Source: a virus. Taken from it: a stretch of 64,000 bases of DNA. A program made the translations under genes and the position numbers. Position 1 is the stretch's first letter. Each line of letters begins with the position of its first letter. Below, piece by piece: positions 730 through 30,526 of this stretch. The stretch covers positions 32,001 through 96,000 of IMG/VR virus record IMGVR_UViG_3300043777_000086, one strand, 5' to 3'. Under the pieces are notes generated by a model. That model was not told where the DNA came from, ran no database searches, and was given only the letters and a program-made list of their open reading frames with translations.

Positions 730-3700
730 TTAGTTCGCCTGGACCGCCAGGAGCCTGGGGATCGTTACCGTAACTAACTGAAGATTAGCCACCGCGGTAG
801 CCGACGAAGTCGAGGCAATCTTGATATTCATCACATTACCTCCGGAGCAATTAGTCATGCTGGTCGAGTTCAACTGAAGCGTTTGGGTGTATGGCGTGTT
901 GGCTGTGGTGCCCGTCGTCGTGGTGGTGAATGTCTGTGCTGTCTGAAAGCTAGGGTCGTCTGTGGTGGTAGAGCATCCGATCGCCACCGAGAATGCGATC
1001 ACCTGGGATCCAGTTGCTGCGTTCTGCGTGTAGTTGATGCGGACGTAGGGGTCGGTGGCGGTATCCCAATCCGAGGGAACCTCGAGCTGGGATTGGGCGC
1101 TCTGGACGCTTGCGGCGAACTGAAGATAGCCGGTCTGTAGATTGGTGCCGGTGCGGCAAAACGGGGTCGGTGCCGCGCTGGTTGGTAGCGACATTCCAGC
1201 TCCCGCCGTGGTGTTATTGCAGTTGGCCGGGACGATCTGCTTGACGTCAGGGAAGTCTATGAAGGTTGGGGATCCAGCCCCCCCGGATAGCGCTACCTGC
1301 TTGGCTGTGCCCGCAGCGCTTGAGCTTATGGCGGACGTGCTTGATCCGTATACGATCCCTCCGCTGGTTACCGAGGCCGGAATCGTTAACCCATTAATGC
1401 TCGTCTGATTCGCAAGGGCGGCCGGTAGATCAGCAGTCCCGATCGACTCATAACCCGGTGCCGCGGTCGACCCGGTGTTATTCATCCAGGCTTTATGGGC
1501 ACCGGCCGTGGCGAGCGTGGCGGTGATCGCCCCGGTCGAAGAAGAGTTCGAAATAAACGTTCCGTCCCCGCTGAATGAAGTTACCGGGGCTCCACCGATC
1601 GTCCCGGTGGCGATCTGCCCGGTGATCGAGGGCGATCCCGTTGCTGTGCTCCACGTAGCCTGGAAGTCAATCGTATGGCTCGTAGTGGTGTTAATGCTGA
1701 ATGTGGCGGTGTTAGCTAAGGACCCATCCGCTGGCGTCAGGGATGTTACTGAAGACGGATTGATCTGGAATGCACAAACAGCAATCGCCGTTCCTCCGGA
1801 TCCCGTGGTACGCGTGGTGATCTGACAGCCAGGCGTATTCCAGGATCCGTTCGTGACGGCTGTGGAAGGTAGAGTCAGCGCGCCGGTAGTGGCGATCGAA
1901 GATCCGTCGATTAATAACGTGATCGTCAGCGTTCCGATGTAAGCGCTCGGGATCGATACAACCCCTCCGAAGTTCAGGCTAAGCGGAGTATTCGTGATCA
2001 GCGTATTAGCGGGGATAGTCTGGGCTCCTCCGCCGATTAGGGAGGTGGCGGAAGTTCCTGTGTCCGTAGCTGAGGAGGTCGCATTGAATACGCTCGCTCC
2101 GGCAGATCCACCTCCGCCACCCCCGCTCGATGCGATCGTGAGTCCATTGGAGGCCGGGGTGAATGTCACGTTCGTGCCAGCTACGGGGGGAGCATTTCCG
2201 AAATAATTGGTGCCGTCCGACCAGAACGCGATCGGCTGATAGGAGATCAAGACAGGGACGCTCGATGCCCCATTGAAGTTCTTGGAATTTAGGGAAACCG
2301 TAGCTACTGAACTGCCGATGGACTCGATCGCCCCGTAGTATCCGTTGGTCGGGGATCCGTACAGGGTAACAGAGCAGGGAGAAGCGCAGTTCATTACCAC
2401 TGTCTTTCCAAGGTCCCCGGCAACTAGAGTGTAGTTTCCGGTCTGGGTATTTTCAGCCCCGCTCACCGTGCAGGTTGATCCGAGGGTGCAGGTCTGTCCG
2501 TTTACCGTGGAGGAGCTATTTGCCAGGGCTGCGTTCGGTACCGCCTCGTATGTGACGGTATTCGAGGCGGTGACCACAGGGACCGTATTTGTGGATGGCG
2601 TCGCCCCGTAGCTTACCCCGTTGACTTTAGCCACAGTGGCCGCCAGGGATCCGGCCGAGCTTATCACATCTCCGGTCAACTGAAGAGTGAACCAGGCGAA
2701 TTGACTAACGTTCGAGGTCGGCGCCGGGAACAACATGATCTGATTGGCGGCTGGAACAGCATTAGGAGTCTCAAGTAAGACCGAAGTGGTTATCGTTGTG
2801 GGGCAGGTCCACCCAAACGAGTTGCTACCTGCGGTTGCCGCAGTGCCCTGCGCGCACTGCCATGCTCCGGCTACGCCGCTGCCGGATCCTGTCGTAACTG
2901 AGGAGGTGGTGGAGATTGGCTCCGTGGTCGAGACCGTGGTTCCGTTGTCGGTTATGGAGGTGTTCTCGCAAGCCGAAGAGCCATTAGATGCCTGAACAAC
3001 CCCCGCTGATCCCGAGGGGATACACCCAGATCCAGACCCGGTGTACTGCGGGATATTCAAAGTCCCGGAGGTGAACGTGGCTGCACCTGAAGTACCCGTG
3101 GTGGTGAGGGTGAATGGTGCCGTGAAAGCCCCGTTGCCGTTCAGGAACGTGGTCGTGGTTCCTGGGAGGATCGGAAGGAATCCGTGGGCGCTAGTGGAGG
3201 CGTTGTTCGTGGTGATATTGGTCAGTGCCAATGCCGCTTCCGCTAAAGTTCCCCCTCCGGCCGAGTTCTGATGGTTATGGTTGGCATTTACGAACGAGGC
3301 GATCGTAGGCGTGGTCAGGGTTTTATTGGTAAGGGTATCGGTTGTGCCGCGACCGACAAAAGTGTCCGTCGCATCCTGAATAGTCCAGACCCGATTCGCC
3401 GTAGGAGTGCCAGTCAGCTCAATCGAATCGGTACCAAAGGTCGACGACCCATAGAGATAGATATTTCTCCACGCAGTCGCCGCGGCGCCGAGGTCGAGGG
3501 TGGTCTGCGGTATCAGTGATAGGTTAATGGAAACAGAAGCCAAGTTCGATAGGGCTGTATTAGCACCACCCCCACCACTGCCGCAATCCGATCCGGTACC
3601 GGTGATCAAACCTGCGGAATTGGCGTGTAGACATTGGATTCCGGAAGCAACATCACTGAGCGTCAACCCCGAAGCCGTGGGGTTGGTCAACGTCTTGTTG

Positions 3701-22741: not shown

Positions 22742-23446
22742 ATGTTTCCAGCCGCGCTAGCCTTTCTTGACGTCCACCACCCTACCCCCATAAAATACAC
22801 GTGGCTGGCGCTAATCGTAGCTGCGGCTGTATTGAAACTCCTGATTATAGGCATGCTCACGCTTCGCTCCACGAGATTCCCTGCCTTCAGGATTTTTCTG
22901 CTCATATCAGCCTGGGGCGGGCTAATACAGACGAGCAGACTGTGGAATCTTGAATGGGAGATCGCCCTGGCTGGAGCACTAGGACTCTTCGTACTCGAGA
23001 TTCTGTTCGTATCGGGATGGAGTGTGCGCGGACAATTCGTGCGCCGCTACGACAGGAACGTGTCGGCGTTCGCCGGTCTGATCCTATTCGCCGTGATGCT
23101 CATCGCGGCGCCGGCTCCGTATCCGGGGTATCCCCCGCCTCTATATTACACGCGACTCTATACCGCGATCATTGCGGAGGGGATGGTGATTGCGGCGGCG
23201 ATCTACTATTGGTTCGATCGGATCGGAAGGGAGGCGTGGGTCAAATGGCATAATGCCTGCGCCATTTTCTACATCGCCATCCCGCTGGCGGCAGCCGGAT
23301 ACCGCGGGTCGCATCGCTGGGAGGCGCGAATTGTCATCACCTCCCTGAATCTCGCCTGCCTTTCGGTGTGGCTGTGGCTCAGTCTTGCCCGCGAAGATCG
23401 CGTATGTCCCGATGTAGGTCCTGTATGTTCTGCCTCCATTCAATAA
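22742..23446 (+). CDS. Polytopic (~7 TM) membrane protein
   Basis: About seven hydrophobic segments, RFPAF motif after TM1; antisense to flanking genes. Confidence 0.7.
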   Translation: MFPAALAFLDVHHPTPIKYTWLALIVAAAVLKLLIIGMLTLRSTRFPAFRIFLLISAWGGLIQTSRLWNLEWEIALAGALGLFVLEILFVSGWSVRGQFVRRYDRNVSAFAGLILFAVMLIAAPAPYPGYPPPLYYTRLYTAIIAEGMVIAAAIYYWFDRIGREAWVKWHNACAIFYIAIPLAAAGYRGSHRWEARIVITSLNLACLSVWLWLSLAREDRVCPDVGPVCSASIQ

Positions 23447-23711
23447 CCAGGAGGGCATCCTTGGACTCTTTGTCGCGTCTCTCGCGATCCATATCATCCA
23501 GTCTTTGCAACACCGGCCTAAGTTCGCTGGCGATAGTCGCCCTGATCACAGCGTCCACTGTAACAGGCTTACCGTTACCGTTAGACTTGGCAAGTTTGGA
23601 CTTCATGCGTGCCAATAAACCACCCAGCACGCTGATGACCAATAGCAATGCGCCGATGACCCGCTCAAGTAAATTATTGGTATCGGCGCTGTTCTGGTTG
23701 GAGTCAAGCAT
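23379..23711 (-). CDS. Holin-like single-TM coiled-coil protein
   Basis: N-terminal TM, charged coiled-coil C-terminus. Confidence 0.55.
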   Translation of the reverse strand: MLDSNQNSADTNNLLERVIGALLLVISVLGGLLARMKSKLAKSNGNGKPVTVDAVIRATIASELRPVLQRLDDMDRERRDKESKDALLVIEWRQNIQDLHRDIRDLRGQD

Positions 23712-23712
23712 C

Positions 23713-23976
23713 TCAAGGCCATGGGGGTCCGGGCGGGTCGTACAGCACGTGCGCGGTGGCGACCTCGTACACCCATTCTCCCACGAGCACGTCCCCTTCT
23801 ATAACTTTTACTGCCTTGACGTTAAAAAATTTCCTGTCAGGGCTGTGCTCGAGCACGGCAATGATGATGGCCGTCCAAAGATTACCCTGATCGTCTTGAT
23901 AGGGCGCGAACTGATCCGGTTTAGGCGGTTCGCCCGTAACAGCAAGAGGTGGATTGGCAATGTAGTTTTGTGACAT
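23713..23976 (-). CDS. Hypothetical protein
   Basis: 87 aa, tightly packed in the operon. Confidence 0.55.
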   Translation of the reverse strand: MSQNYIANPPLAVTGEPPKPDQFAPYQDDQGNLWTAIIIAVLEHSPDRKFFNVKAVKVIEGDVLVGEWVYEVATAHVLYDPPGPPWP

Positions 23977-23978
23977 TT

Positions 23979-24320
23979 CTATTGTCCCTTTCTCAAGAAA
24001 TACAAAATTAACGCGCCTATCAGCATCTGAATAATAACCCCAGCCCCCAGTCCGATGTAGATGAACTTCCAGACGTTTTCCATTTGCTCGACAACGCGTT
24101 GATGTCGGCTATTGTATTCGTCCTTCGAGACCATTTCTTTCTGCATCTCGCGGTTCTCCGAACGCAGATTGTTCATGTCCCGAAGGCGTTCGTCCATGAG
24201 CTTTTGCAGCAGCGCCGTTTGTCCGTCGCGTAATTCAAAGACCTCCCTTAGGTGTTCAAAACGAAGCCTGATGATCTCGGTTAATTGCTCAACGTCATGA
24301 CTCCTTGTTCCCGAAGGCAT
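23979..24320 (-). CDS. XhlA-like coiled-coil plus C-terminal TM holin-like protein
   Basis: Coiled coil, VSKDEY motif, C-terminal TM ending in RKGQ. Confidence 0.65.
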   Translation of the reverse strand: MPSGTRSHDVEQLTEIIRLRFEHLREVFELRDGQTALLQKLMDERLRDMNNLRSENREMQKEMVSKDEYNSRHQRVVEQMENVWKFIYIGLGAGVIIQMLIGALILYFLRKGQ

Positions 24321-24326
24321 TGCTCT

Positions 24327-24770
24327 TCAGTGCTCAACGGAAACCACCAGATGCTCATCGATCGGCTTGCCAGCGGCATCGTCCTTTTCGGCTGGCACGA
24401 GCGTTACTTCTTTCGGTTTCTTTACGACATTTTGAAACATCCACTCCTGGCCAGCCCGCTGCGCAGCGAAACGAATGAAGCCGTCGTAAAGCGCATGCAG
24501 GGATGGGGTCGATCCCGTGAAGTGCCATCCGGTTGACGCGTCTCCGCTGGTTATGCTAATCGTGCCTTGTACGAACAGCGCCGTCCCGAGTGCGGCTCCG
24601 GTGGACACCCAACGCGTCACGCGATCGGAGTTCGCACTAAGCCACGGGAACCAGCGCGCACGCTTCAACCACTGAATCACGTAAACTGTGATCACTACCA
24701 AACCGGCTTGGTGCGCCATCGCGTCTAGCGCGCGCATCAGATCCGGGTTGGAGATATCTTCGGATTGCAT
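24327..24770 (-). CDS. Holin-like membrane protein
   Basis: VIQWLKRARWFPWL motif and 2-3 hydrophobic segments. Confidence 0.6.
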   Translation of the reverse strand: MQSEDISNPDLMRALDAMAHQAGLVVITVYVIQWLKRARWFPWLSANSDRVTRWVSTGAALGTALFVQGTISITSGDASTGWHFTGSTPSLHALYDGFIRFAAQRAGQEWMFQNVVKKPKEVTLVPAEKDDAAGKPIDEHLVVSVEH

Positions 24771-25051
24771 TACTTTACTGGCGGGATGGGGTCTACCTGT
24801 TCAACTTTTATGACCGGCTGCTGGGTGTTCGCTGCAATCACCTCCGGGCTCGATGGTTGAGGGATCTTTCCGCCCGACACCTGCGAATCCTTGGCATTCA
24901 CCCCGAAGCTCGCTAACCCACCCGCCATCGCGAACATAGCGATCGCCATAATCCAATTCGGAAACGTGATGAAGTGGAGCTGCTGAGCGAATAGAACAAA
25001 AGACGCGGCAGCCGATATGGATGCCGCTACTGTGGTTCTCCAGCTCTTCAT
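24770..25051 (-). CDS. Holin-like 2-TM protein
   Basis: MKSWRTT...two TMs...AKD; strong AAGGAGG RBS before ATG 25051 (alternative start 25084). Confidence 0.7.
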   Translation of the reverse strand: MKSWRTTVAASISAAASFVLFAQQLHFITFPNWIMAIAMFAMAGGLASFGVNAKDSQVSGGKIPQPSSPEVIAANTQQPVIKVEQVDPIPPVK

Positions 25052-25177
25052 AGAACCCTCCTTGATCCTTACCAGGATCTGCATTTGGCTAACGATAACA
25101 TAGCCCTACCGGGCTCGAATTAATGTGGACAAAAATATCCGAGGCGTGATATCCTAGCCCCCAGAAACCGCACAGAC

Positions 25178-26767
25178 ATGCCGATAAATCCCACCATAAT
25201 CTTCTGCACAACCTGCAAGGGACGCACGCAGCATTTAGCGCAGACGCTCCCTATGAATCTTCGCGACAACGCCAACTACCCGAACTGTAAATTCGTTGTG
25301 CTGGATTACGGAGACCCTGGTGAGTTGAAGGAATACCTGAGGGCGGTTCATCCTCCTGACATTGCCAGCGGCCGCCTTAGCGTTTATCGTTTTGAGACAG
25401 AGGAGCCCTTTCATGTCTCGCACGCCAAGAACATCGCGGCCCGTTGCGGTATTTTAGAGGGCGCTGACATCCTCGTCACGCTCGATGCCGACAACTTCAC
25501 CGGGCCAGGCTTCGCGCAATACATTGCGGATCACTTTCAAGTTTTAGACTACGCACCACCGGGGCAGTTTTTGGTCCCCAACCACCTCTACATCCAGAGC
25601 CTTCCGCACGGCCCCGGACGACCCTGCCGGGGTTTCGCCGGCCGCTTGGCGATCCGCGCACAGGACTTCATCAAGATGGGCGGGTACGACGAGACTTACA
25701 ACACCTGGCGCGGAGAGGACATCGACCTGATGTTTCGAATGATGCGTTCCGGCTACGCACTGCGGCATATCGACAACCGATTTCTGAATACGATCCCGCA
25801 CAACGCCGCGGTCCGATTCAAGGAGTACCCCGAGGCTCGGCAGTACGAGAATCCGGATGAGGTCAAGGTGATCCGCGCCCGTACGGAAACCGTCGTCAAC
25901 TATGGCAAGTTTGGTATGGGAACGGTTTACCGCAACTTCAGCTCCAGACCCATTGAACTTACTGCCGTTCCCACTAGGATCTTCGGAATCGGAATGCATA
26001 AAACCGGTACCACTAGCCTGAACGCGGCGTTTCAGATCCTCGGTTTAGATAGCCTCCATTGGGGAGCCGGTGAAGCGCCTCGGATCTGGCAGGAGATGAA
26101 CTCTGGAGAATTTTCTAAGACGCTCGAGCAATGGTACGCGCTTTCCGACCTTCCAATCCCTCTGCTTTACAAGAAGCTCGATCGCGCTTACCCTGGATCG
26201 AAGTTCATCCTCACGGTGCGCAACGAGGAGAAGTGGCTCCGGAGTGTCGAACGGCTATGGAGCCCGAGGTTCAACCCGACCAGGCACCTCTGGAACATCT
26301 GGCCGTTTAGCAACACCATCCATCGCGTGCTGTACGGACAGGATACGTTCGACGCAGATATATTTCTTGAAAGATACCGGCGGCACAATCGAGAGGTGAT
26401 AGAGTATTTCCGCCAGCGCCCGCAGGATCTACTCGTGCTAGATATGGACGCCGAGGCGAAGTGGGCGCCTCTTTGCATGTTCCTCGGATTGCGCTATCCG
26501 GCAGTCGAATTCCCTACGCAAAATCAGACTCAGGCGTTTGAGTCGCTAAAGGTATACTCTGCCCCCGAACCGTGCGATGACGTCGACAGCGATGAAGAGC
26601 TTCTCGCAAGAAGCCTTCGTGAGTACTGGAGGACCGCACCCCCAAGTGGACAGCCGACACCAACTCAGCCGATGACCACGCATCATAAAAGAAGAATGCG
26701 CCGGATCCGGCGTAGGAGAGAGGTGGAGGCTAATACCCCGATCAAGGGACCGGAGGAAATAGCGTGA
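25178..26767 (+). CDS. Glycosyltransferase (GT-A, GT2/GT7-like) fused to a sulfotransferase domain
   Basis: VVLDYG, HAKNIAA, LDAD (DxD), MGGYDE...WRGEDID; then IFGIGMHKTGTTSL (PAPS loop), YPGSKFILTVR..EKWLRS, WAPLC.FLG. Confidence 0.9.
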   Translation: MPINPTIIFCTTCKGRTQHLAQTLPMNLRDNANYPNCKFVVLDYGDPGELKEYLRAVHPPDIASGRLSVYRFETEEPFHVSHAKNIAARCGILEGADILVTLDADNFTGPGFAQYIADHFQVLDYAPPGQFLVPNHLYIQSLPHGPGRPCRGFAGRLAIRAQDFIKMGGYDETYNTWRGEDIDLMFRMMRSGYALRHIDNRFLNTIPHNAAVRFKEYPEARQYENPDEVKVIRARTETVVNYGKFGMGTVYRNFSSRPIELTAVPTRIFGIGMHKTGTTSLNAAFQILGLDSLHWGAGEAPRIWQEMNSGEFSKTLEQWYALSDLPIPLLYKKLDRAYPGSKFILTVRNEEKWLRSVERLWSPRFNPTRHLWNIWPFSNTIHRVLYGQDTFDADIFLERYRRHNREVIEYFRQRPQDLLVLDMDAEAKWAPLCMFLGLRYPAVEFPTQNQTQAFESLKVYSAPEPCDDVDSDEELLARSLREYWRTAPPSGQPTPTQPMTTHHKRRMRRIRRRREVEANTPIKGPEEIA

Positions 26768-27279
26768 CGGTTTTGATGACAGGTCTACCGTGCTCTGGAA
26801 AGACGACGCTCTCCTTAGCGCTCTGTAATCTTCTACGCAACTCCGGACGCCGCGCCGAGATCCTCGACGGTGACGTGGTGCGCTTCGAGCTATGGAAGGA
26901 GCTTGGGTTCAGCCAGTCTGATCGCGAGGAAAACGTTCGCCGCCTTGGTTATCTTGCGCGTATGCTCTCCCGGAACGGCGCTATTGCCATCATAGCGGCG
27001 GTGTCCCCCTACCGCGCCTCCCGCGACCATATCCGCAAAATATCCGACAACGGATTTATGGAGGTATACGTTAAGGCGCCTCTTTCTGTTTGCGAGACCC
27101 GCGACGTAAAGGGAATGTATGCCCAGGCGCGCGCCGGTAAGCGACCACACTTCACCGGCATCGACGACCCCTATGAGGCGCCGGTCAATCCCGAGGTAGA
27201 ATGCCTAACAGATGAAGAGAGCGTCGCGGAGATCGTCGCCAAGATCGTGATCGAGCTTAAAAAGCAAGGAGCCCTCTAA
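26764..27279 (+). CDS. cysC: Adenylyl-sulfate (APS) kinase
   Basis: MTGLPCSGKTT, LDGDVVR, LGFS..DREENVRR, VSPY, CETRDVKGMY..AR.G...FTGIDDPYEAP. Confidence 0.96.
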   Translation: MTVLMTGLPCSGKTTLSLALCNLLRNSGRRAEILDGDVVRFELWKELGFSQSDREENVRRLGYLARMLSRNGAIAIIAAVSPYRASRDHIRKISDNGFMEVYVKAPLSVCETRDVKGMYAQARAGKRPHFTGIDDPYEAPVNPEVECLTDEESVAEIVAKIVIELKKQGAL

Positions 27280-28106
27280 TGAACTACCGCCTCGGAAAGC
27301 GCCCGCCGGTTGTCGACGCGCGCACACTTAAATTCAGGAAGTACACTACTACTTTACCGCCAGTTCCGCTATTAGTTGATTTCATGTCCAAGGTCCCGAG
27401 TTTCCCGATGTATCTCAATGATGTTGAGGGCGACTGTGTATGCGCCGCCGCGGGCCACATGATTCAGAACTGGACGCAGTATTCCGGCAAGTACTTCCAG
27501 CCAACCGACGCTGACATTCAGACGTTCTACGAGTTCAGCGGATTCGATCCCGGCAATCCGTCGACCGATCAGGGATGGGAACTCCTGCCTGCATTGAAGG
27601 TGTGGCGCAACAAAGGCATCGGCGGTCATAAGATCGTCGCCTTTGCGCAACTCACCACCGGAGACTTCGGGGAACTCCTGGATGCGATCCGGATCTTTGG
27701 AAATGCCTACCTGGGGTTCAGCCTTCCGGATTACGTAGTGCCCAACTCCGGACCGGACTGGACAACCATCCGGTGGCTGTACGAAGAAGGCAACCCTCCC
27801 GATCCAAATAACGGCCACTGTGTGCCGGCTATGAAATTTTCCCTTAAAACCGCATACGGTCATCGCGTGTGGTTCGTTTCCTGGGCGGCAAGGATGGTGA
27901 TGAACCCCCCGTTCTACCAAGCCTATAGCGATGAAGCCTGGGTGGCGATCACGCAGGACTGGATAGATGCGGATGCTAAGTCTCCGAGCGGGTTCAATAT
28001 GGCAGCGCTTACCGCCGACCTGGCATTAATTACCGGGAAACCGCAGGCGGCGACCGCGATCCAACCCAAGAGTGCTGATAGAAAGAAATGGTGGAGCCGG
28101 CTATGA
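27279..28106 (+). CDS. Papain-like cysteine peptidase
   Basis: MYLND..GDCVCAA (Cys), NGHCV (His), VSWA; TAATG-coupled to cysC. Confidence 0.75.
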   Translation: MNYRLGKRPPVVDARTLKFRKYTTTLPPVPLLVDFMSKVPSFPMYLNDVEGDCVCAAAGHMIQNWTQYSGKYFQPTDADIQTFYEFSGFDPGNPSTDQGWELLPALKVWRNKGIGGHKIVAFAQLTTGDFGELLDAIRIFGNAYLGFSLPDYVVPNSGPDWTTIRWLYEEGNPPDPNNGHCVPAMKFSLKTAYGHRVWFVSWAARMVMNPPFYQAYSDEAWVAITQDWIDADAKSPSGFNMAALTADLALITGKPQAATAIQPKSADRKKWWSRL

Positions 28107-28471
28107 CACCCTCTCAATTCAGAACCGATCGCAACAATAACCCCACGGCCATGATCGTGCAGTTGGCCCAGGAAGGCGGGCTCGTTGAAGGTACCGACTA
28201 CACCCAGGGGGACGCTTTCGAATCCGGAGGTAGGACCTACTACACCGCCAAGCTCCTTGGGGATCCGGTAGCCCTCACAATCAAAGTGATCGACGAAGTG
28301 GGATTCTACTCTGAACCGCCGCATGCCCGCTGGAACTACATCGCTATACCGCACGCCCTGTGGATGAGCCTGAATACAATCCAGAAGTCTTACGTGATCG
28401 GCTGGATGTATTCACAGGAGGGTGGAGTGGCGATGAGGAATCTATTTCCGGTTGCGCCTTATAGCGCGTAA
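28103..28471 (+). CDS. Small RNNNP-motif protein, lysozyme-like/endolysin candidate
   Basis: RTDRNNNP...F...MYSQEG resembles phage RNNNPGN-type proteins; ATGA overlap. Confidence 0.5.
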   Translation: MTPSQFRTDRNNNPTAMIVQLAQEGGLVEGTDYTQGDAFESGGRTYYTAKLLGDPVALTIKVIDEVGFYSEPPHARWNYIAIPHALWMSLNTIQKSYVIGWMYSQEGGVAMRNLFPVAPYSA

Positions 28472-28492
28472 CGCGGATACGGCGGATTTGGA

Positions 28493-29167
28493 TCACGGAG
28501 CCACCGCGTTAATCGCCTGAGCGTACAGCGCAGAAGAATGCCAGGCGATCGGGTCGATGTCCTTCAGGTCCAAGAATCCGTCCGGTGCCTTAGTCACGTG
28601 CGTGAGCGGGATGTTCTTGTACGCGAATGCAGGCGGCAAAGGTAGGGGCAGCATAGGGACTGGGTCGCCATAGAAGCCTGCCGCGTTCCTGTAATTGCGC
28701 CATTCCACTTTGGACAGGAAGTCGAGGAATGCTTGGAATCCCGGAGCTGGGCCTGCCATTCCGATTATGCGAAGCATCGAAGGATCGGGTTGGTACTGAT
28801 CTAGGAAGATCGCGCCGGCTTCCGCCGCGCGTTGGCTTCCTAGGCTGTGTCCCGTTAAGGTGGTCTTCAATCCCAAGTTCAAGAGGGGGACGATCCGCGC
28901 CATCGTCTCGGGCATCCCACAGAATGATCCAGAGTGGACAGGTCCGAATCTGGCGTGCTGGTAAGGCTGTGGGTAGGCCATAAGATCCTGCAACCAATTC
29001 TGAAGCTCAGAGGGAAGCGTGCCGCGAAATACTACTACGTTCTCATCTGGGGTCAACAATACCGCACAGCATATGGAGAAGCCCTCCTCTGGGTAGTATT
29101 TGGTGAACCCCGCCGCGCCAGAGTAGATTGCGTGGCTAAGTTGCGCGGCCTGTGCGTCTGATATCAT
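28493..29167 (-). CDS. Class 3 lipase-like alpha/beta hydrolase
   Basis: VVFRGT, VHSG, TGHSLG nucleophile, DPVP, terminal His; start ATG 29167. Confidence 0.9.
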   Translation of the reverse strand: MISDAQAAQLSHAIYSGAAGFTKYYPEEGFSICCAVLLTPDENVVVFRGTLPSELQNWLQDLMAYPQPYQHARFGPVHSGSFCGMPETMARIVPLLNLGLKTTLTGHSLGSQRAAEAGAIFLDQYQPDPSMLRIIGMAGPAPGFQAFLDFLSKVEWRNYRNAAGFYGDPVPMLPLPLPPAFAYKNIPLTHVTKAPDGFLDLKDIDPIAWHSSALYAQAINAVAP

Positions 29168-29289
29168 GATCGCCACTGAATCGCCAGCCAACCAGCCGCC
29201 CCAAGAAGTGCCAGCAATGCAAATACAATCCAGCATGCCAGCCAGAAGCGCTGTACGTCGTTAGGGGTGTGCGGGGATTGGTGGGTCAT
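29164..29289 (-). CDS. 41-aa single-TM micropeptide
   Basis: MTHQSPHTPNDVQRFWLACWIVFALLALLGAAGWLAIQWRS; TAATG and ATGA overlaps on both sides. Confidence 0.7.
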   Translation of the reverse strand: MTHQSPHTPNDVQRFWLACWIVFALLALLGAAGWLAIQWRS

Positions 29290-29693
29290 TAGGCCACGCT
29301 TTCGTTCAATAGGTTATCGGACGCCCATTCACGCATCCGCAACCAACGGTGCTCTGGTGTCTCAGGGCCGCCCTCATCATTCTGATAAGCGATCTCCATC
29401 GCGAGCTGTCGCGCGATATCGAATACCGCAGCAACCTGCTCGGGTTCCTCTGGGTCGATCTCCTGCATTTTTATGCCACGCATCCGACCGACAGCACCGA
29501 GAGCGCAAACTTGACCGTCTGGGGTTTCCAATTCCGAAGATACGAGAGCCTTTTCGGGCATTAGATCGAGCGCAGCAACCATATCAGCGAGTAGTTTTTG
29601 GCCGCGCTTGCCACGAATAGCGCTCGCAACTTGGCCGCGCCATTTAATAAGATCCCATTGGTCAAGATCTTCAGAATATCCCGATCTGCTCAT
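29289..29693 (-). CDS. Conserved phage hypothetical protein
   Basis: MSRSGYS.D...WRGQVASAIRGKRGQ...CALG...EIAYQND...RW..MR.W; AGGAG RBS. Confidence 0.8.
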   Translation of the reverse strand: MSRSGYSEDLDQWDLIKWRGQVASAIRGKRGQKLLADMVAALDLMPEKALVSSELETPDGQVCALGAVGRMRGIKMQEIDPEEPEQVAAVFDIARQLAMEIAYQNDEGGPETPEHRWLRMREWASDNLLNESVA

Positions 29694-29788
29694 GGACACA
29701 CTCCTATTTCATAGCAGAACCATCTCACGGGCACGTCCCAGTCTTCTGCCACGTCACGGTAAGTGCAGGCAGAGCAATCGTCATTGAA

Positions 29789-30526
29789 TCAGTCATTGCA
29801 GACCACCTGCTGATCGCACAGCAGAGCGCTAGTCGATTCTAATACAGATCGTACGGCCTTCATGTCCAGCGCTCGGTCGTCTTCGGTACGCACCCGTCGC
29901 TCCATGTCGATCCAGTATGGTCGCGAGAACCCCTCCTCGAATAGCGCCTCAATTTTCTGCACCTGATTTACTACATTCTGTGGACCTAACCCACCAGCAT
30001 AGCCGCACCAGAAGGGCACGTTCCGTGAAGAAGGCCACTTATCAGGAAGAATCCCCGCGCCTCCCGACGTGTCGAATAGTGCCGCCACATCAAGGCCGTG
30101 TGCGTGGACGCCGAGCGATAGGTGGTTGTTGACGCCGTCCCACTGAAAAATAAACTGCTTGCCTGAAAGCGAGCGCAGGCAATCGATCAATCCCATCGTC
30201 GAAACGTGCTCCTCGGCGTGCGTGTTGATTTGAATGCGTTGCGAAATATGCACGCACTCGGGCAAATCCGGCCAGTTCAATTTCCCGACGAACATGTCCC
30301 GAACCCAACGCCCGCACACATGCGTCGAAACTTTGAGTTTTTTCGCAAACGCAACGGTAGAAAATCGATCGATCCAGTCACGGCCCGGAAAGCGCGGAGA
30401 ACCCTCCAGTCGCTGCGACACCAGAATGCCCCACTCCACAAATGGAAACTGATGAGCCAAATCAACCAGCTCGATTATGCTCGTGCTGTCATCGGCTCCA
30501 GTAATCGTAACCGCCTTCAGGTTCAT
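29789..30526 (-). CDS. Phage TIM-barrel protein (PRAI/TrpF-like)
   Basis: TITGADD, EWGIL, LFDTSGGAG, GYAGGLGP.N, WIDME. Confidence 0.75.
   Translation of the reverse strand: MNLKAVTITGADDSTSIIELVDLAHQFPFVEWGILVSQRLEGSPRFPGRDWIDRFSTVAFAKKLKVSTHVCGRWVRDMFVGKLNWPDLPECVHISQRIQINTHAEEHVSTMGLIDCLRSLSGKQFIFQWDGVNNHLSLGVHAHGLDVAALFDTSGGAGILPDKWPSSRNVPFWCGYAGGLGPQNVVNQVQKIEALFEEGFSRPYWIDMERRVRTEDDRALDMKAVRSVLESTSALLCDQQVVCND

Follow-up and report, generated by a model that had tools for sequence, protein, structure and literature searches.

The 64,000-nucleotide stretch of phage DNA analyzed here (the window) encodes a 529-amino-acid protein in which a GT-A glycosyltransferase (GT) is fused to a PAPS-type sulfotransferase (ST), and sequence analysis confirmed it as a predicted cytoplasmic bifunctional enzyme with domain identities and motifs intact. 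The fusion probably carries out both sugar transfer and PAPS-dependent sulfation, with PAPS coming from CysC, the APS kinase encoded by the translationally coupled gene that follows (Table 1).

The source IMG/VR record is a complete soil phage of 106,152 bp with direct terminal repeats and an estimated completeness of 100%, and portal and large terminase genes lie close to the sulfation unit within the window, all of which agrees with the phage origin given to the unit in the initial annotation. The fusion/cysC operon sits inside the structural and late region, with a gene for a 1,556-amino-acid protein on one side and one for an Ig-domain structural protein on the other. The TGA stop of the fusion gene is overlapped by the GTG start of cysC (GTGA), and a GGAGG Shine-Dalgarno sequence is found at 26753-26757. 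Likewise, the cysC stop and the ORF3 start share a TAATG overlap, and ORF4 starts inside the end of ORF3. The initial annotation had described the fusion and cysC as their own plus-strand unit, 25178-27279; the strand and the GTGA coupling stand, and the end does not, since TAATG leads into ORF3 and ORF4. Promoter and terminator scans of the region gave nothing exceeding chance and, because the number of promoter-type sites was not above the shuffled expectation, the sigma-70-like site upstream of the fusion is only a candidate. Directly upstream of the unit, the opposite strand encodes small membrane proteins of holin-like and spanin-like type. A megablast search with positions 24000-30000 found no match among deposited phages, and no operon protein matched a defense-system model in PADLOC. 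A search for sequencing runs listed soil-metagenome DNA runs and no RNA run.

Table 1. Features of the sulfation unit and its immediate neighbors, in window positions
Feature	Position	Strand	Details
Small protein with two hydrophobic stretches, holin-like	24770..25084	-	phrog_29636; divergent neighbor, outside the sulfation module
Candidate sigma-70-like promoter	25126..25155	+	TGGACA-18-TATCCT with TG, 9/12 positions; in the 93-bp gap before the fusion
GT-ST fusion, 529 aa	25178-26767	+	Pfam Glyco_transf_7C and Sulfotransfer_4
GT-A half, residues 1-255	25178..25942	+	DxD D103-A-D105; W177..E180-D181; H208
Conserved linker and PAPS-type sulfotransferase half, residues 256-455	25943..26542	+	G270-S280 loop; R348...S356; D324
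C-terminal tail of fusion, residues 456-529, nonconserved	26543..26767	+	Polybasic helix (HHKRRMRRIRRRRE)
cysC, APS kinase, 171 aa	26764-27279	+	GTG start; APS_kinase 3e-56
ORF3, papain-fold (C1-like, xylellain-like) cysteine protease with N-terminal pro-region	27279..28106	+	phrog_19005 4e-26
ORF4, 127-aa ORFan	28088..28471	+	Overlaps the ORF3 end
Class-3 lipase/esterase	28493..29236	-	Pfam Lipase_3 3.7e-9; phrog_21992; convergent neighbor, context

Both halves of the fusion were recognized by Pfam, Glyco_transf_7C at residues 153-208 (1.1e-8; 35 bits against a cutoff of 23) and Sulfotransfer_4 (PF17784) at residues 267-454 (1.7e-36; 126.5 bits against 22.8). In the GT half, D103-A-D105, W177, E180, D181, and H208 were invariant across 30 homologs, so that the GT-A fold and DxD motif are accompanied by the C-terminal W..ED and the distal His metal ligand. 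The structure of this half was predicted with a pLDDT of >90, and Foldseek matched it to K4CP chondroitin polymerase, heparosan synthase 2, B4GalT1, and GalNAc-Ts at 1e-8 to 1e-6; in profile and Foldseek searches, members of GT2, GT7, and GT27 all matched weakly and with similar strength. In the sulfotransferase half, the 5'-phosphosulfate loop reads G270-I-G-M-H-K-T-G-T-T-S280, and both G270-x-G272...T278-x-S280 and R348...S356 (3'-PB) were invariant or at least 90% conserved in 30 homologs and aligned with the motifs of Schistosoma SULT-OR. The family profile matched solved sulfotransferases at 1e-18 (SULT-OR) to 7e-15, Cpz8 and SgdX2 among them, with the motifs aligned, and Foldseek gave TM scores by target of 0.69 to 0.73 to Cpz8 and SgdX2. 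The domain score, the fold, the 5'-PSB loop, and the 3'-phosphate Arg...Ser pair all place this half with the solved members of the family. D324, also invariant, corresponds in the alignment to the Asp in the SULT-OR "TTDLP" stretch, a candidate catalytic base. A scan of the fusion for a signal peptide or hydrophobic segment found none. The initial annotation had proposed a GT-A glycosyltransferase fused to a PAPS-loop domain, in an enzyme with no signal peptide and hence predicted to be cytoplasmic, and these data bear out both points. Its start codon, ATG 25178, is also retained; the database gene call P0003 (504 aa) begins 25 codons downstream and would drop the conserved N terminus.

CysC scored 190 bits against PF01583 (cutoff 21.1) and 206 bits against TIGR00455 (cutoff 138.7). 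It is a predicted APS kinase with every expected motif present (P-loop GLPCSGKTT, LDGD, DREENVRR, SPY, RDVKGMY, and FTGIDDPYE), and the P-loop, LDGD, DRxEN, SPY, and RDxKGxY motifs were invariant among five viral CysC sequences; cysC is thus intact as well as GTGA coupled, as first annotated. Profile searches of the complete phage found no cysH, cysD, or ATP sulfurylase (no PF01507 and no PF01747), and therefore APS must come from the host. PAPS_reduct, ATP-sulfurylase, and GT2 domains were likewise not found in the source phage, which carries neither cysH nor other assimilation genes with its cysC.

In the literature, viral cysC has been published as an assimilatory sulfate reduction gene, with sulfotransferases unmentioned (10.1101/2021.01.05.425418; PMC10914622). 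Following that standard reading, the cysC studied here would be an ordinary assimilatory auxiliary metabolic gene (AMG) and the sulfotransferase beside it unrelated. A host CysH could indeed use extra PAPS, and all four metagenome-assembled genomes (MAGs) that carry the fusion gave some APS-kinase match, two of them weak or partial. Against it stand the GTGA coupling to the fusion, the missing cysH, cysD, and sulfurylase, and natural triple fusions in which the APS kinase is covalently joined to GT-ST in both orders, C-terminal in P0033 and P0014 and N-terminal in P0034. The genomic company of viral cysC elsewhere, described next, also speaks against an assimilatory role, which we consider very unlikely here.

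A survey of cysC and sulfotransferase co-occurrence, of the kind suggested in the initial annotation, was run on the 50 other viral cysC records closest to the phage CysC, drawn from at least 209 viral cysC stretches. A sulfotransferase above the cutoff was present in 27 of the 50, at a median distance of 1.6 kb (no more than 500 bp from cysC in 11 records and no more than 3 kb in 19), compared with a PAPS-reductase-family (PAPS_reduct) gene in 5 of 50. Among 50 control viral records no sulfotransferase was found, a contrast that is strong and yet not matched, because the cysC sample consists of the closest 50 and the controls come from a different (soil) phage population whose records add up to about half the length (Fisher P = 1e-10 and 4e-6 for the survey comparisons). 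These counts indicate that the usual genomic partner of viral cysC is a sulfotransferase, and they make it well supported that CysC would feed the PAPS donor to the fused sulfotransferase. That CysC is a PAPS supplier and not an assimilation enzyme had already been suggested in the initial annotation; the coupling, the fusions in two orders, the lack of cysH, cysD, and sulfurylase, and the joint travel of viral cysC and sulfotransferase now all favor it.

The kinase gene is nevertheless an optional accessory of the fusion, found in about 1 locus in 10, a point missed by the initial annotation. It adjoins the fusion in 7 of 68 loci (~10%), and when whole records were searched, cysC was present in 6 of 45, beside the fusion in 5 of these 6 and as a weak match ~85 kb away in the other (G003). 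Because cysC is missing from the vicinity of ~90% of family members, the kinase would be dispensable where the host makes PAPS.

The fusion family is nearly restricted to viruses. It was found at 63 IMG/VR loci, compared with 4 matches in ~185,000 species genomes; a phage DNA-ejection gene lies next to at least one of these 4 copies. The family search returned 1,296 matches, and the best 120 of the 1,296 were all fused forms (57 to 75% identity). No full-length copy was present in 50,697 deposited phage genomes, and a literature search found no paper describing the GT-ST fusion family. Phages ranging from 40 to 265 kb carry the fusion at 45 to 67% identity, with no detectable similarity among the genes that flank it. 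Across 67 related loci the context differs, and no consistent adjacency to structural, capsid/tail, or DNA-modification genes was seen; because the genes around the fusion vary widely and for the most part lack annotation, genomic context cannot name the acceptor.

In the mechanism that we propose, the metal-dependent DxD GT-A domain would take a sugar from its nucleotide-sugar donor and attach it to an acceptor, the PF17784 domain would next move sulfate from PAPS onto the added sugar or an adjacent group, and the strongly conserved linker would keep the two domains together. We infer both the order of the two reactions and the sugar as the sulfated group. CysC would phosphorylate host-made APS to PAPS, and the phage would thus secure the sulfate donor itself. 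The occurrence of PF17784 domains inside ~1,450-amino-acid multi-glycosyltransferase proteins supports a glycan as the substrate. The substrates that the solved relatives of the sulfotransferase half sulfate are small molecules and not glycans, which counts against the main explanation. The product might then be a sulfated glycoside or a soluble metabolite or signaling molecule, serving for example in counter-defense, and not a polymer. Besides the small-molecule substrates of all the solved relatives, this would suit a gene that behaves as a mobile unit of its own and has no partner pathway conserved with it. However, the embedding of PF17784 domains in multi-GT assembly proteins, the lack of a match to any defense or anti-defense model, and the membrane anchors of some members, unexpected for a soluble-metabolite enzyme, make small-molecule or nucleotide sulfation quite unlikely.

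For the glycoconjugate that we favor, we place the acceptor tentatively on the cytoplasmic side of the inner membrane, where it would be an envelope-glycan intermediate linked to lipid or some other molecule associated with the membrane. Late in infection, or in lysogens, the phage may in this way alter a glycan of the host surface, for instance masking receptors. This placement is the least certain step of the mechanism. Past the conserved core, the C terminus consists of a single transmembrane anchor or DUF2061 in 10 of 120 homologs and of a polybasic run in 5 of 120, the phage protein studied here among the latter. Such tail-anchored and polybasic relatives point weakly to the cytoplasmic membrane face, and because the tail-anchored ones exist we favor a membrane-proximal acceptor, a possibility that the initial annotation named just as "lipid-linked." Most homologs have no tail (median, 14 amino acids), and the lack of a membrane-targeting tail in most members counts against a membrane placement. 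DUF2061 was also seen flanking viral cysC.

Mycobacteriophages decorate capsid and tail or tail-tube proteins with their own GT-A enzymes (cited in PMC11256854 and PMC11600133), and a sulfated sugar might similarly be placed here on phage capsid, tail, or fiber proteins. The operon does sit among structural and late genes, the GT half of the fusion has look-alikes in stand-alone phage GT-A proteins, and a few relatives adjoin an adaptor or terminase gene. Set against this, relatives show no consistent capsid or tail gene adjacency, tail-anchored members would stay at the membrane, and an enzyme 45 to 67% identical across phages of such different sizes with dissimilar flanks is more in keeping with a conserved host molecule than with virion proteins, which evolve fast. 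We therefore judge virion glycosylation unlikely.

Some phages glycosylate their own DNA, and one relative of the fusion adjoins a C-5 cytosine methylase, so that sugar and sulfate could conceivably be added to a modified base of phage DNA as an anti-restriction measure. Against this, the recurrent neighbors include no hydroxymethylase, base-modifying kinase, or other DNA-modification gene, the GT half is like protein and glycan GT-A enzymes and unlike T4-type DNA glucosyltransferases, and membrane-anchored members would be kept off DNA. We know of no sulfated DNA, and DNA hypermodification appears extremely improbable.

The product of ORF3 is recognizable as a papain-like (clan CA, C1-type) protease by its fold, by the Cys-then-His order of its catalytic residues, and by an oxyanion residue that precedes the Cys by 6 positions. 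N47, C53, H180, and W202 were invariant among 18 sequences; the pattern scan itself used 7 sequences, the 18-sequence alignment being too divergent. The AF2 model (pLDDT 80.5; Foldseek 1.6e-9) superposed on xylellain (3ois) with VIA Z = 20.6 and an rmsd of 2.7 over 209 residues, and procathepsins gave Z values of 14 to 18. ORF3 is a frequent co-traveler of the fusion and may act as a processing partner or as a lysis enzyme. Alternatively, ORF3, perhaps with ORF4 and the lipase, would form a lysis enzyme set, the GT-ST/cysC pair would be cargo inserted at a lysis cassette, and the protease would have no part in sulfation. The holin-like and spanin-like genes upstream on the other strand fit a lysis set, as do the neighbors of ORF3 elsewhere, which include two holins, two cell-wall hydrolases, and a GDSL lipase. 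In phage MW202816.1, which lacks GT-ST, the ORF3 homolog and the end of an amidase endolysin gene overlap, and overall ORF3 mostly occurs without the fusion, GT-ST being present in only 2 of the 80 best ORF3 loci. Conversely, an ORF3 homolog lies beside the fusion and in the same direction in 21 of 68 GT-ST loci with otherwise differing genes, and P0077 is a GT-ST fused to a complete ORF3-type protease with Cys and His intact. On balance, a lysis set with the sulfation genes as cargo is nearly as probable as its opposite. A complex prediction of GT-ST (residues 1-455) with ORF3 scored 0.00; it was made without control runs and counts neither for nor against a partnership.

ORF4 belongs to no family in Pfam, PHROG, NCBIfam, or PADLOC, its Atlas matches were below meaningful scores, and no related locus carries a homolog. 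A GT-A enzyme, a papain-like peptidase, and a short precursor together could suggest a RiPP-like or glycocin-like system, a reading that we rejected, as ORF4 is conserved in none of the relatives.

In eukaryotes, sulfated glycans play a central part in host-microbe recognition, and a few bacteria are known to sulfate their surface glycans. A literature search found no description of a sulfated bacteriophage product. It is an evenly balanced proposition that soil tailed phages make a sulfated glycoconjugate through a nearly virus-only bifunctional enzyme and that the "assimilatory" cysC of viromes mostly feeds phage sulfotransferases. If true, this would be a phage sulfation biology undescribed so far, possibly rewriting host surface charge or receptors. 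More narrowly, our results suggest that phage cysC often feeds sulfation and not host sulfur assimilation, and viral contributions to sulfur cycling would then need reinterpreting, phage cysC being routinely scored as an assimilation gene (10.1101/2021.01.05.425418; PMC10914622). A conserved, mobile, and nearly phage-only GT-plus-sulfation enzyme would offer a compact, clonable entry to phage sulfation, and it could serve for making sulfated sugars.

Each component has known counterparts. The published viral cysC AMGs are intact, conserved phage APS kinases like the one described here; they have been read as assimilatory (10.1101/2021.01.05.425418; PMC10914622), whereas in the phage studied here, as in 27 of 50 other viral cysC records, the partner gene near cysC encodes a sulfotransferase. 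ORF3 resembles xylellain of Xylella fastidiosa (3ois) in its papain fold, its N-terminal pro-region over the active site, and its papain order of Cys and His; the identity is 16 to 19%, the oxyanion residue of ORF3 is Asn and not Gln, and the triad Asn of papain is not conserved in ORF3. The mycobacteriophage virion-glycosylation loci are similar in that cytoplasmic phage GTs are, or here would be, expressed with late genes, but they are not known to contain a sulfotransferase or PAPS gene and are fixed by structural genes, while the phage fusion moves among unrelated contexts. With K4CP, heparosan synthase 2, B4GalT1, and polypeptide GalNAc-transferases, the phage GT half has in common the GT-A fold, DxD, W..ED, and His ligand, at an identity of only 11 to 17% and TM scores by target of ~0.3 to 0.6. 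Schistosoma SULT-OR (4mua, 5tiv), Cpz8 (9kf1), and SgdX2 (8y9p) share their fold and PAPS motifs with the sulfotransferase half, yet these enzymes consist of a single domain and act on drugs or on intermediates of secondary metabolism, and none is GT-A fused or virus encoded. A parallel in organization is rhizobial NodPQ-NodH, along with similar bacterial cassettes in which PAPS synthesis is paired with a dedicated sulfotransferase; there, as here, a PAPS-making gene and the consuming sulfotransferase share one operon, and the product is, or here would be, a sulfated glycoconjugate, not cysteine. The GTGA overlap, and the fusions in relatives, give the phage genes the one-unit arrangement of such a cassette; an ATP sulfurylase of its own (NodP/CysD with NodQ/CysN, or Sat) is absent, so that the phage supplies the APS-kinase step only. 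Compared with NodH, the phage sulfotransferase comes from another family (PF17784), is fused to a GT, and is carried by a phage.

The GT-ST fusion, a GT-A glycosyltransferase joined to a PAPS-type sulfotransferase, comes from an IMG/VR virus record of 106,152 bp that has direct terminal repeats and a completeness estimate of 100%; the window spans bases 32001-96000 of this record. Around the fusion and its neighbor cysC are genes for a portal, a large terminase, and tail-like proteins. The sequencing runs that contain the stretch are soil metagenomes only. The initial annotation placed the fusion and cysC in a plus-strand unit of their own, coupled by GTGA. The coupling stands, with the GTG start of cysC overlapping the TGA stop of the fusion and GGAGG located directly 5'; the end at cysC does not, as the cysC stop overlaps the ATG of ORF3 in the sequence TAATG and the unit runs on into ORF3 and then ORF4. 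This four-gene unit is bounded by minus-strand genes at each end.

Features of the GT-ST/cysC unit and of the genes just upstream (window positions)
Feature	Position	Strand	Description
Small membrane protein	23379-23711	-	N-terminal TM and coiled coil
Small membrane protein	23979-24320	-	Coiled coil and C-terminal TM
Small membrane protein	24770-25084	-	Two hydrophobic stretches
GT-ST fusion	25178-26767	+	529 aa; Glyco_transf_7C, residues 153-208, 1.1e-8; Sulfotransfer_4, residues 267-454, 1.7e-36 (Pfam)
cysC, APS kinase	26764-27279	+	PF01583, 3e-56; TIGR00455, 206 bits against a cut-off of 138.7
ORF3	27279-28106	+	275 aa; phrog_19005; start overlaps cysC stop
ORF4	28088-28471	+	Fourth gene; overlapped by the end of ORF3

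The proposed fusion of a GT-A domain to a PAPS-loop domain was borne out by the Glyco_transf_7C and Sulfotransfer_4 matches and by conservation of the DxD motif and the 5'-phosphosulfate loop. In an alignment of 30 fusion homologs, the invariant or at least 90% conserved residues include the DxD motif (D103-A-D105), W177, E180, D181, and H208 in the GT half, and the 5'-phosphosulfate loop (G270...T278-x-S280), the 3'-phosphate residues R348 and S356, and D324 in the sulfotransferase half, and a large part of the interdomain linker is likewise conserved. The family profile matched the Schistosoma SULT-OR (1e-18), along with Cpz8 and SgdX2, and in these matches the PAPS motifs line up; it gave only weak matches to GalNAc-transferase, B4GalT1, and chondroitin synthase. 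Foldseek searches with the AlphaFold model (mean pLDDT of 76.5, above 90 in the GT half) agreed with the profile search on both sets of relatives. The public gene call for this protein (P0003, 504 aa) begins at the internal Met26, omits positions 25178 to 25252, and is without the conserved first GT-A strand (IIFCTTCKGR).

The cysC product carries the complete set of classical APS kinase motifs, and its role was taken in the initial annotation to be donor supply rather than sulfate assimilation. That view is supported by the GTGA coupling and by three natural proteins in which APS kinase and GT-ST are covalently joined, with the kinase C-terminal in P0033 and P0014 but N-terminal in P0034. It is also supported by the complete source phage, in which no PAPS-reductase/CysD family member was found, nor any ATP sulfurylase or second GT2. 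Where present, cysC is tightly linked to GT-ST: a search of the 8 kb around the fusion placed cysC at 7 of 68 loci, each time adjoining the fusion. Among 45 whole viral records, 6 gave an APS-kinase match, 5 of them beside the fusion and the sixth (record G003) weak and approximately 85 kb away. Given these frequencies, cysC is an optional accessory.

The co-occurrence survey proposed for cysC and sulfotransferases, run here in reverse, gave a further argument for donor supply. An alignment of viral CysC proteins recovered 209 cysC stretches in IMG/VR, from which 80 loci were taken. Genes around cysC were then classified by Pfam (58 nonredundant loci without the fusion; 113 proteins), and this census contained Sulfotransfer_1, _2, and _3 in 6, 5, and 6 members, respectively, PAPS_reduct in 1, and CysN-like GTPases in 2. 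When the 50 cysC records closest to the source-phage CysC were searched over their whole length, 27 had a sulfotransferase that scored over the Pfam cut-off and 5 had a member of the PAPS_reduct family. The median distance from cysC to the nearest sulfotransferase was 1.6 kb; counted cumulatively, 11 records had one at up to 500 bp, 19 at up to 3 kb, and 25 at up to 10 kb. The three sulfotransferase families were found in 0 of 50 control records picked via an unrelated gene, which represent a different viral population and total about half as many bases as the cysC set (Fisher tests, p = 1e-10 against the controls and p = 4e-6 against PAPS reductase). Two published accounts read viral cysC as assimilatory and leave sulfotransferases unmentioned (10.1101/2021.01.05.425418; PMC10914622). 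Phrase searches of the literature returned nothing on phage or viral sulfotransferases, and one paper describes sulfotransferase function in phages as unclear.

Two arrangements near viral cysC are of separate interest. At locus L092 (record G065, approximately 1143 to 3643), three sulfotransferase genes in tandem (1667-2320, 2419-3063, and 3137-3643) come directly after cysC. Of the 113 census proteins, 25 have a cytidylyltransferase-like domain (PF01467) that is either fused to APS kinase or right next to it. An example is L072:9647-10504, where PF01467 (residues 8 to 60) is N-terminal to the kinase (residues 116 to 262). With the kinase, such a domain might form a mini PAPS synthase, acting as a very small partner that resembles ATP sulfurylase.

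A word-indexed search found 1,296 fusion relatives among 8,000 candidates scored, and the best 120 were all fused forms, with 57 to 75% identity. An exhaustive profile search against representatives of 50%-identity clusters gave 1,327 matches at E <= 1e-30; among the matches listed, about twenty were full-length fusions and the others were stand-alone GT-like or sulfotransferase-like proteins. The fused form is thus numerous but compact in sequence space. Pattern scans located 63 fusion loci in IMG/VR, on contigs of 4 to 265 kb, and only 4 in prokaryotes (~185,000 species, one genome each), one of these adjoining a phage DNA-ejection gene on a 3.1-Mb alphaproteobacterial contig. No full-length homolog was present in 50,697 deposited phage genomes. 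Stand-alone GT halves occur (P0125, 64% identity), as do PF17784 domains within multi-glycosyltransferase proteins of ~1,450 aa. Four further proteins (P0175, P0184, P0189, and P0191; 949 to 1181 aa) contain up to five stretches matching the GT half, as tandem GT-A arrays related to it.

The genomic context of GT-ST does not name the acceptor. Genes flanking 67 related loci are mostly unannotated and vary between loci; the annotated neighbors include a few methyltransferases and a single adaptor, terminase, glucosaminidase, and DNA methylase. We infer a ranking in which modification of virion proteins is unlikely, a soluble small molecule is slightly more doubtful, and DNA is highly improbable. 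The tentatively favored acceptor is one close to the membrane, for example a lipid-linked intermediate of an envelope glycan, because tail anchors seen in some homologs would keep the two catalytic domains on the cytoplasmic side of the membrane. Among the 120 closest homologs, the tail after the sulfotransferase core has a median length of 14 aa, and most proteins stop right there; 10 end in either one transmembrane anchor or the membrane domain DUF2061, and 5, the source-phage fusion included, have a polybasic C-terminal run. In the source-phage protein, no hydrophobic segment was found, and the last 74 residues are unconserved, with a polybasic helix. The predicted membrane domain DUF2061 also turned up in the census around viral cysC, where 14 of the 113 proteins, encoded at that gene or next to it, contain it. 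The GT-ST family member P0004 (608 aa) has DUF2061 fused at its C terminus.

ORF3 matched no Pfam family. Its model (pLDDT of 80.5) matches xylellain with a Z of 20.6, pro-region included, and procathepsins with a Z of 14 to 18, and N47, C53, H180, and W202 are invariant in its family; ORF3 is thus predicted to be a papain-fold cysteine protease. Its link with GT-ST is one-sided. Seen from GT-ST it is frequent, with a co-directional ORF3-type gene adjoining in 21 of 68 loci and a complete ORF3-type protease fused to GT-ST in P0077; seen from ORF3 it is rare, as IMG/VR has 146 ORF3 loci and among the best 80 a fusion lies nearby at only 2. In MW202816.1, an ORF3 homolog and an amidase endolysin gene overlap at the end of the latter, and among neighbors elsewhere are two holins, two cell-wall hydrolases, and a GDSL lipase; in the window, a class-3 lipase converges on the unit from downstream. 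These neighbors hint at a role in lysis, as do the small TM proteins on the minus strand just upstream (23379-25084), which resemble holin-like and spanin-like layouts; no canonical endolysin was found among the genes scanned around them. ORF3 may act as a lysis-type enzyme or, alternatively, as a processing partner. Several ORF3-family proteases (L007:10960-11805, L008:10143-11015, L018:5231-6229, L019:7001-7807, and L034:9172-10167) have His/Arg-rich runs at one end, for example HHHHH stretches or RRKKRW-type tails, that echo the polybasic tail of the source-phage GT-ST. No relatives of ORF4 were found, related GT-ST loci included.

The wiring of PAPS synthesis to its consumer follows the same logic as bacterial sulfation cassettes, NodPQ-NodH among them. 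The phage unit differs from these in being without the ATP-sulfurylase step, in using another sulfotransferase family fused to a GT-A domain, and in having a phage as its carrier. Compared with the virion-glycosylation loci of mycobacteriophages, the phage GT-ST has a sulfation arm and moves among unrelated contexts.
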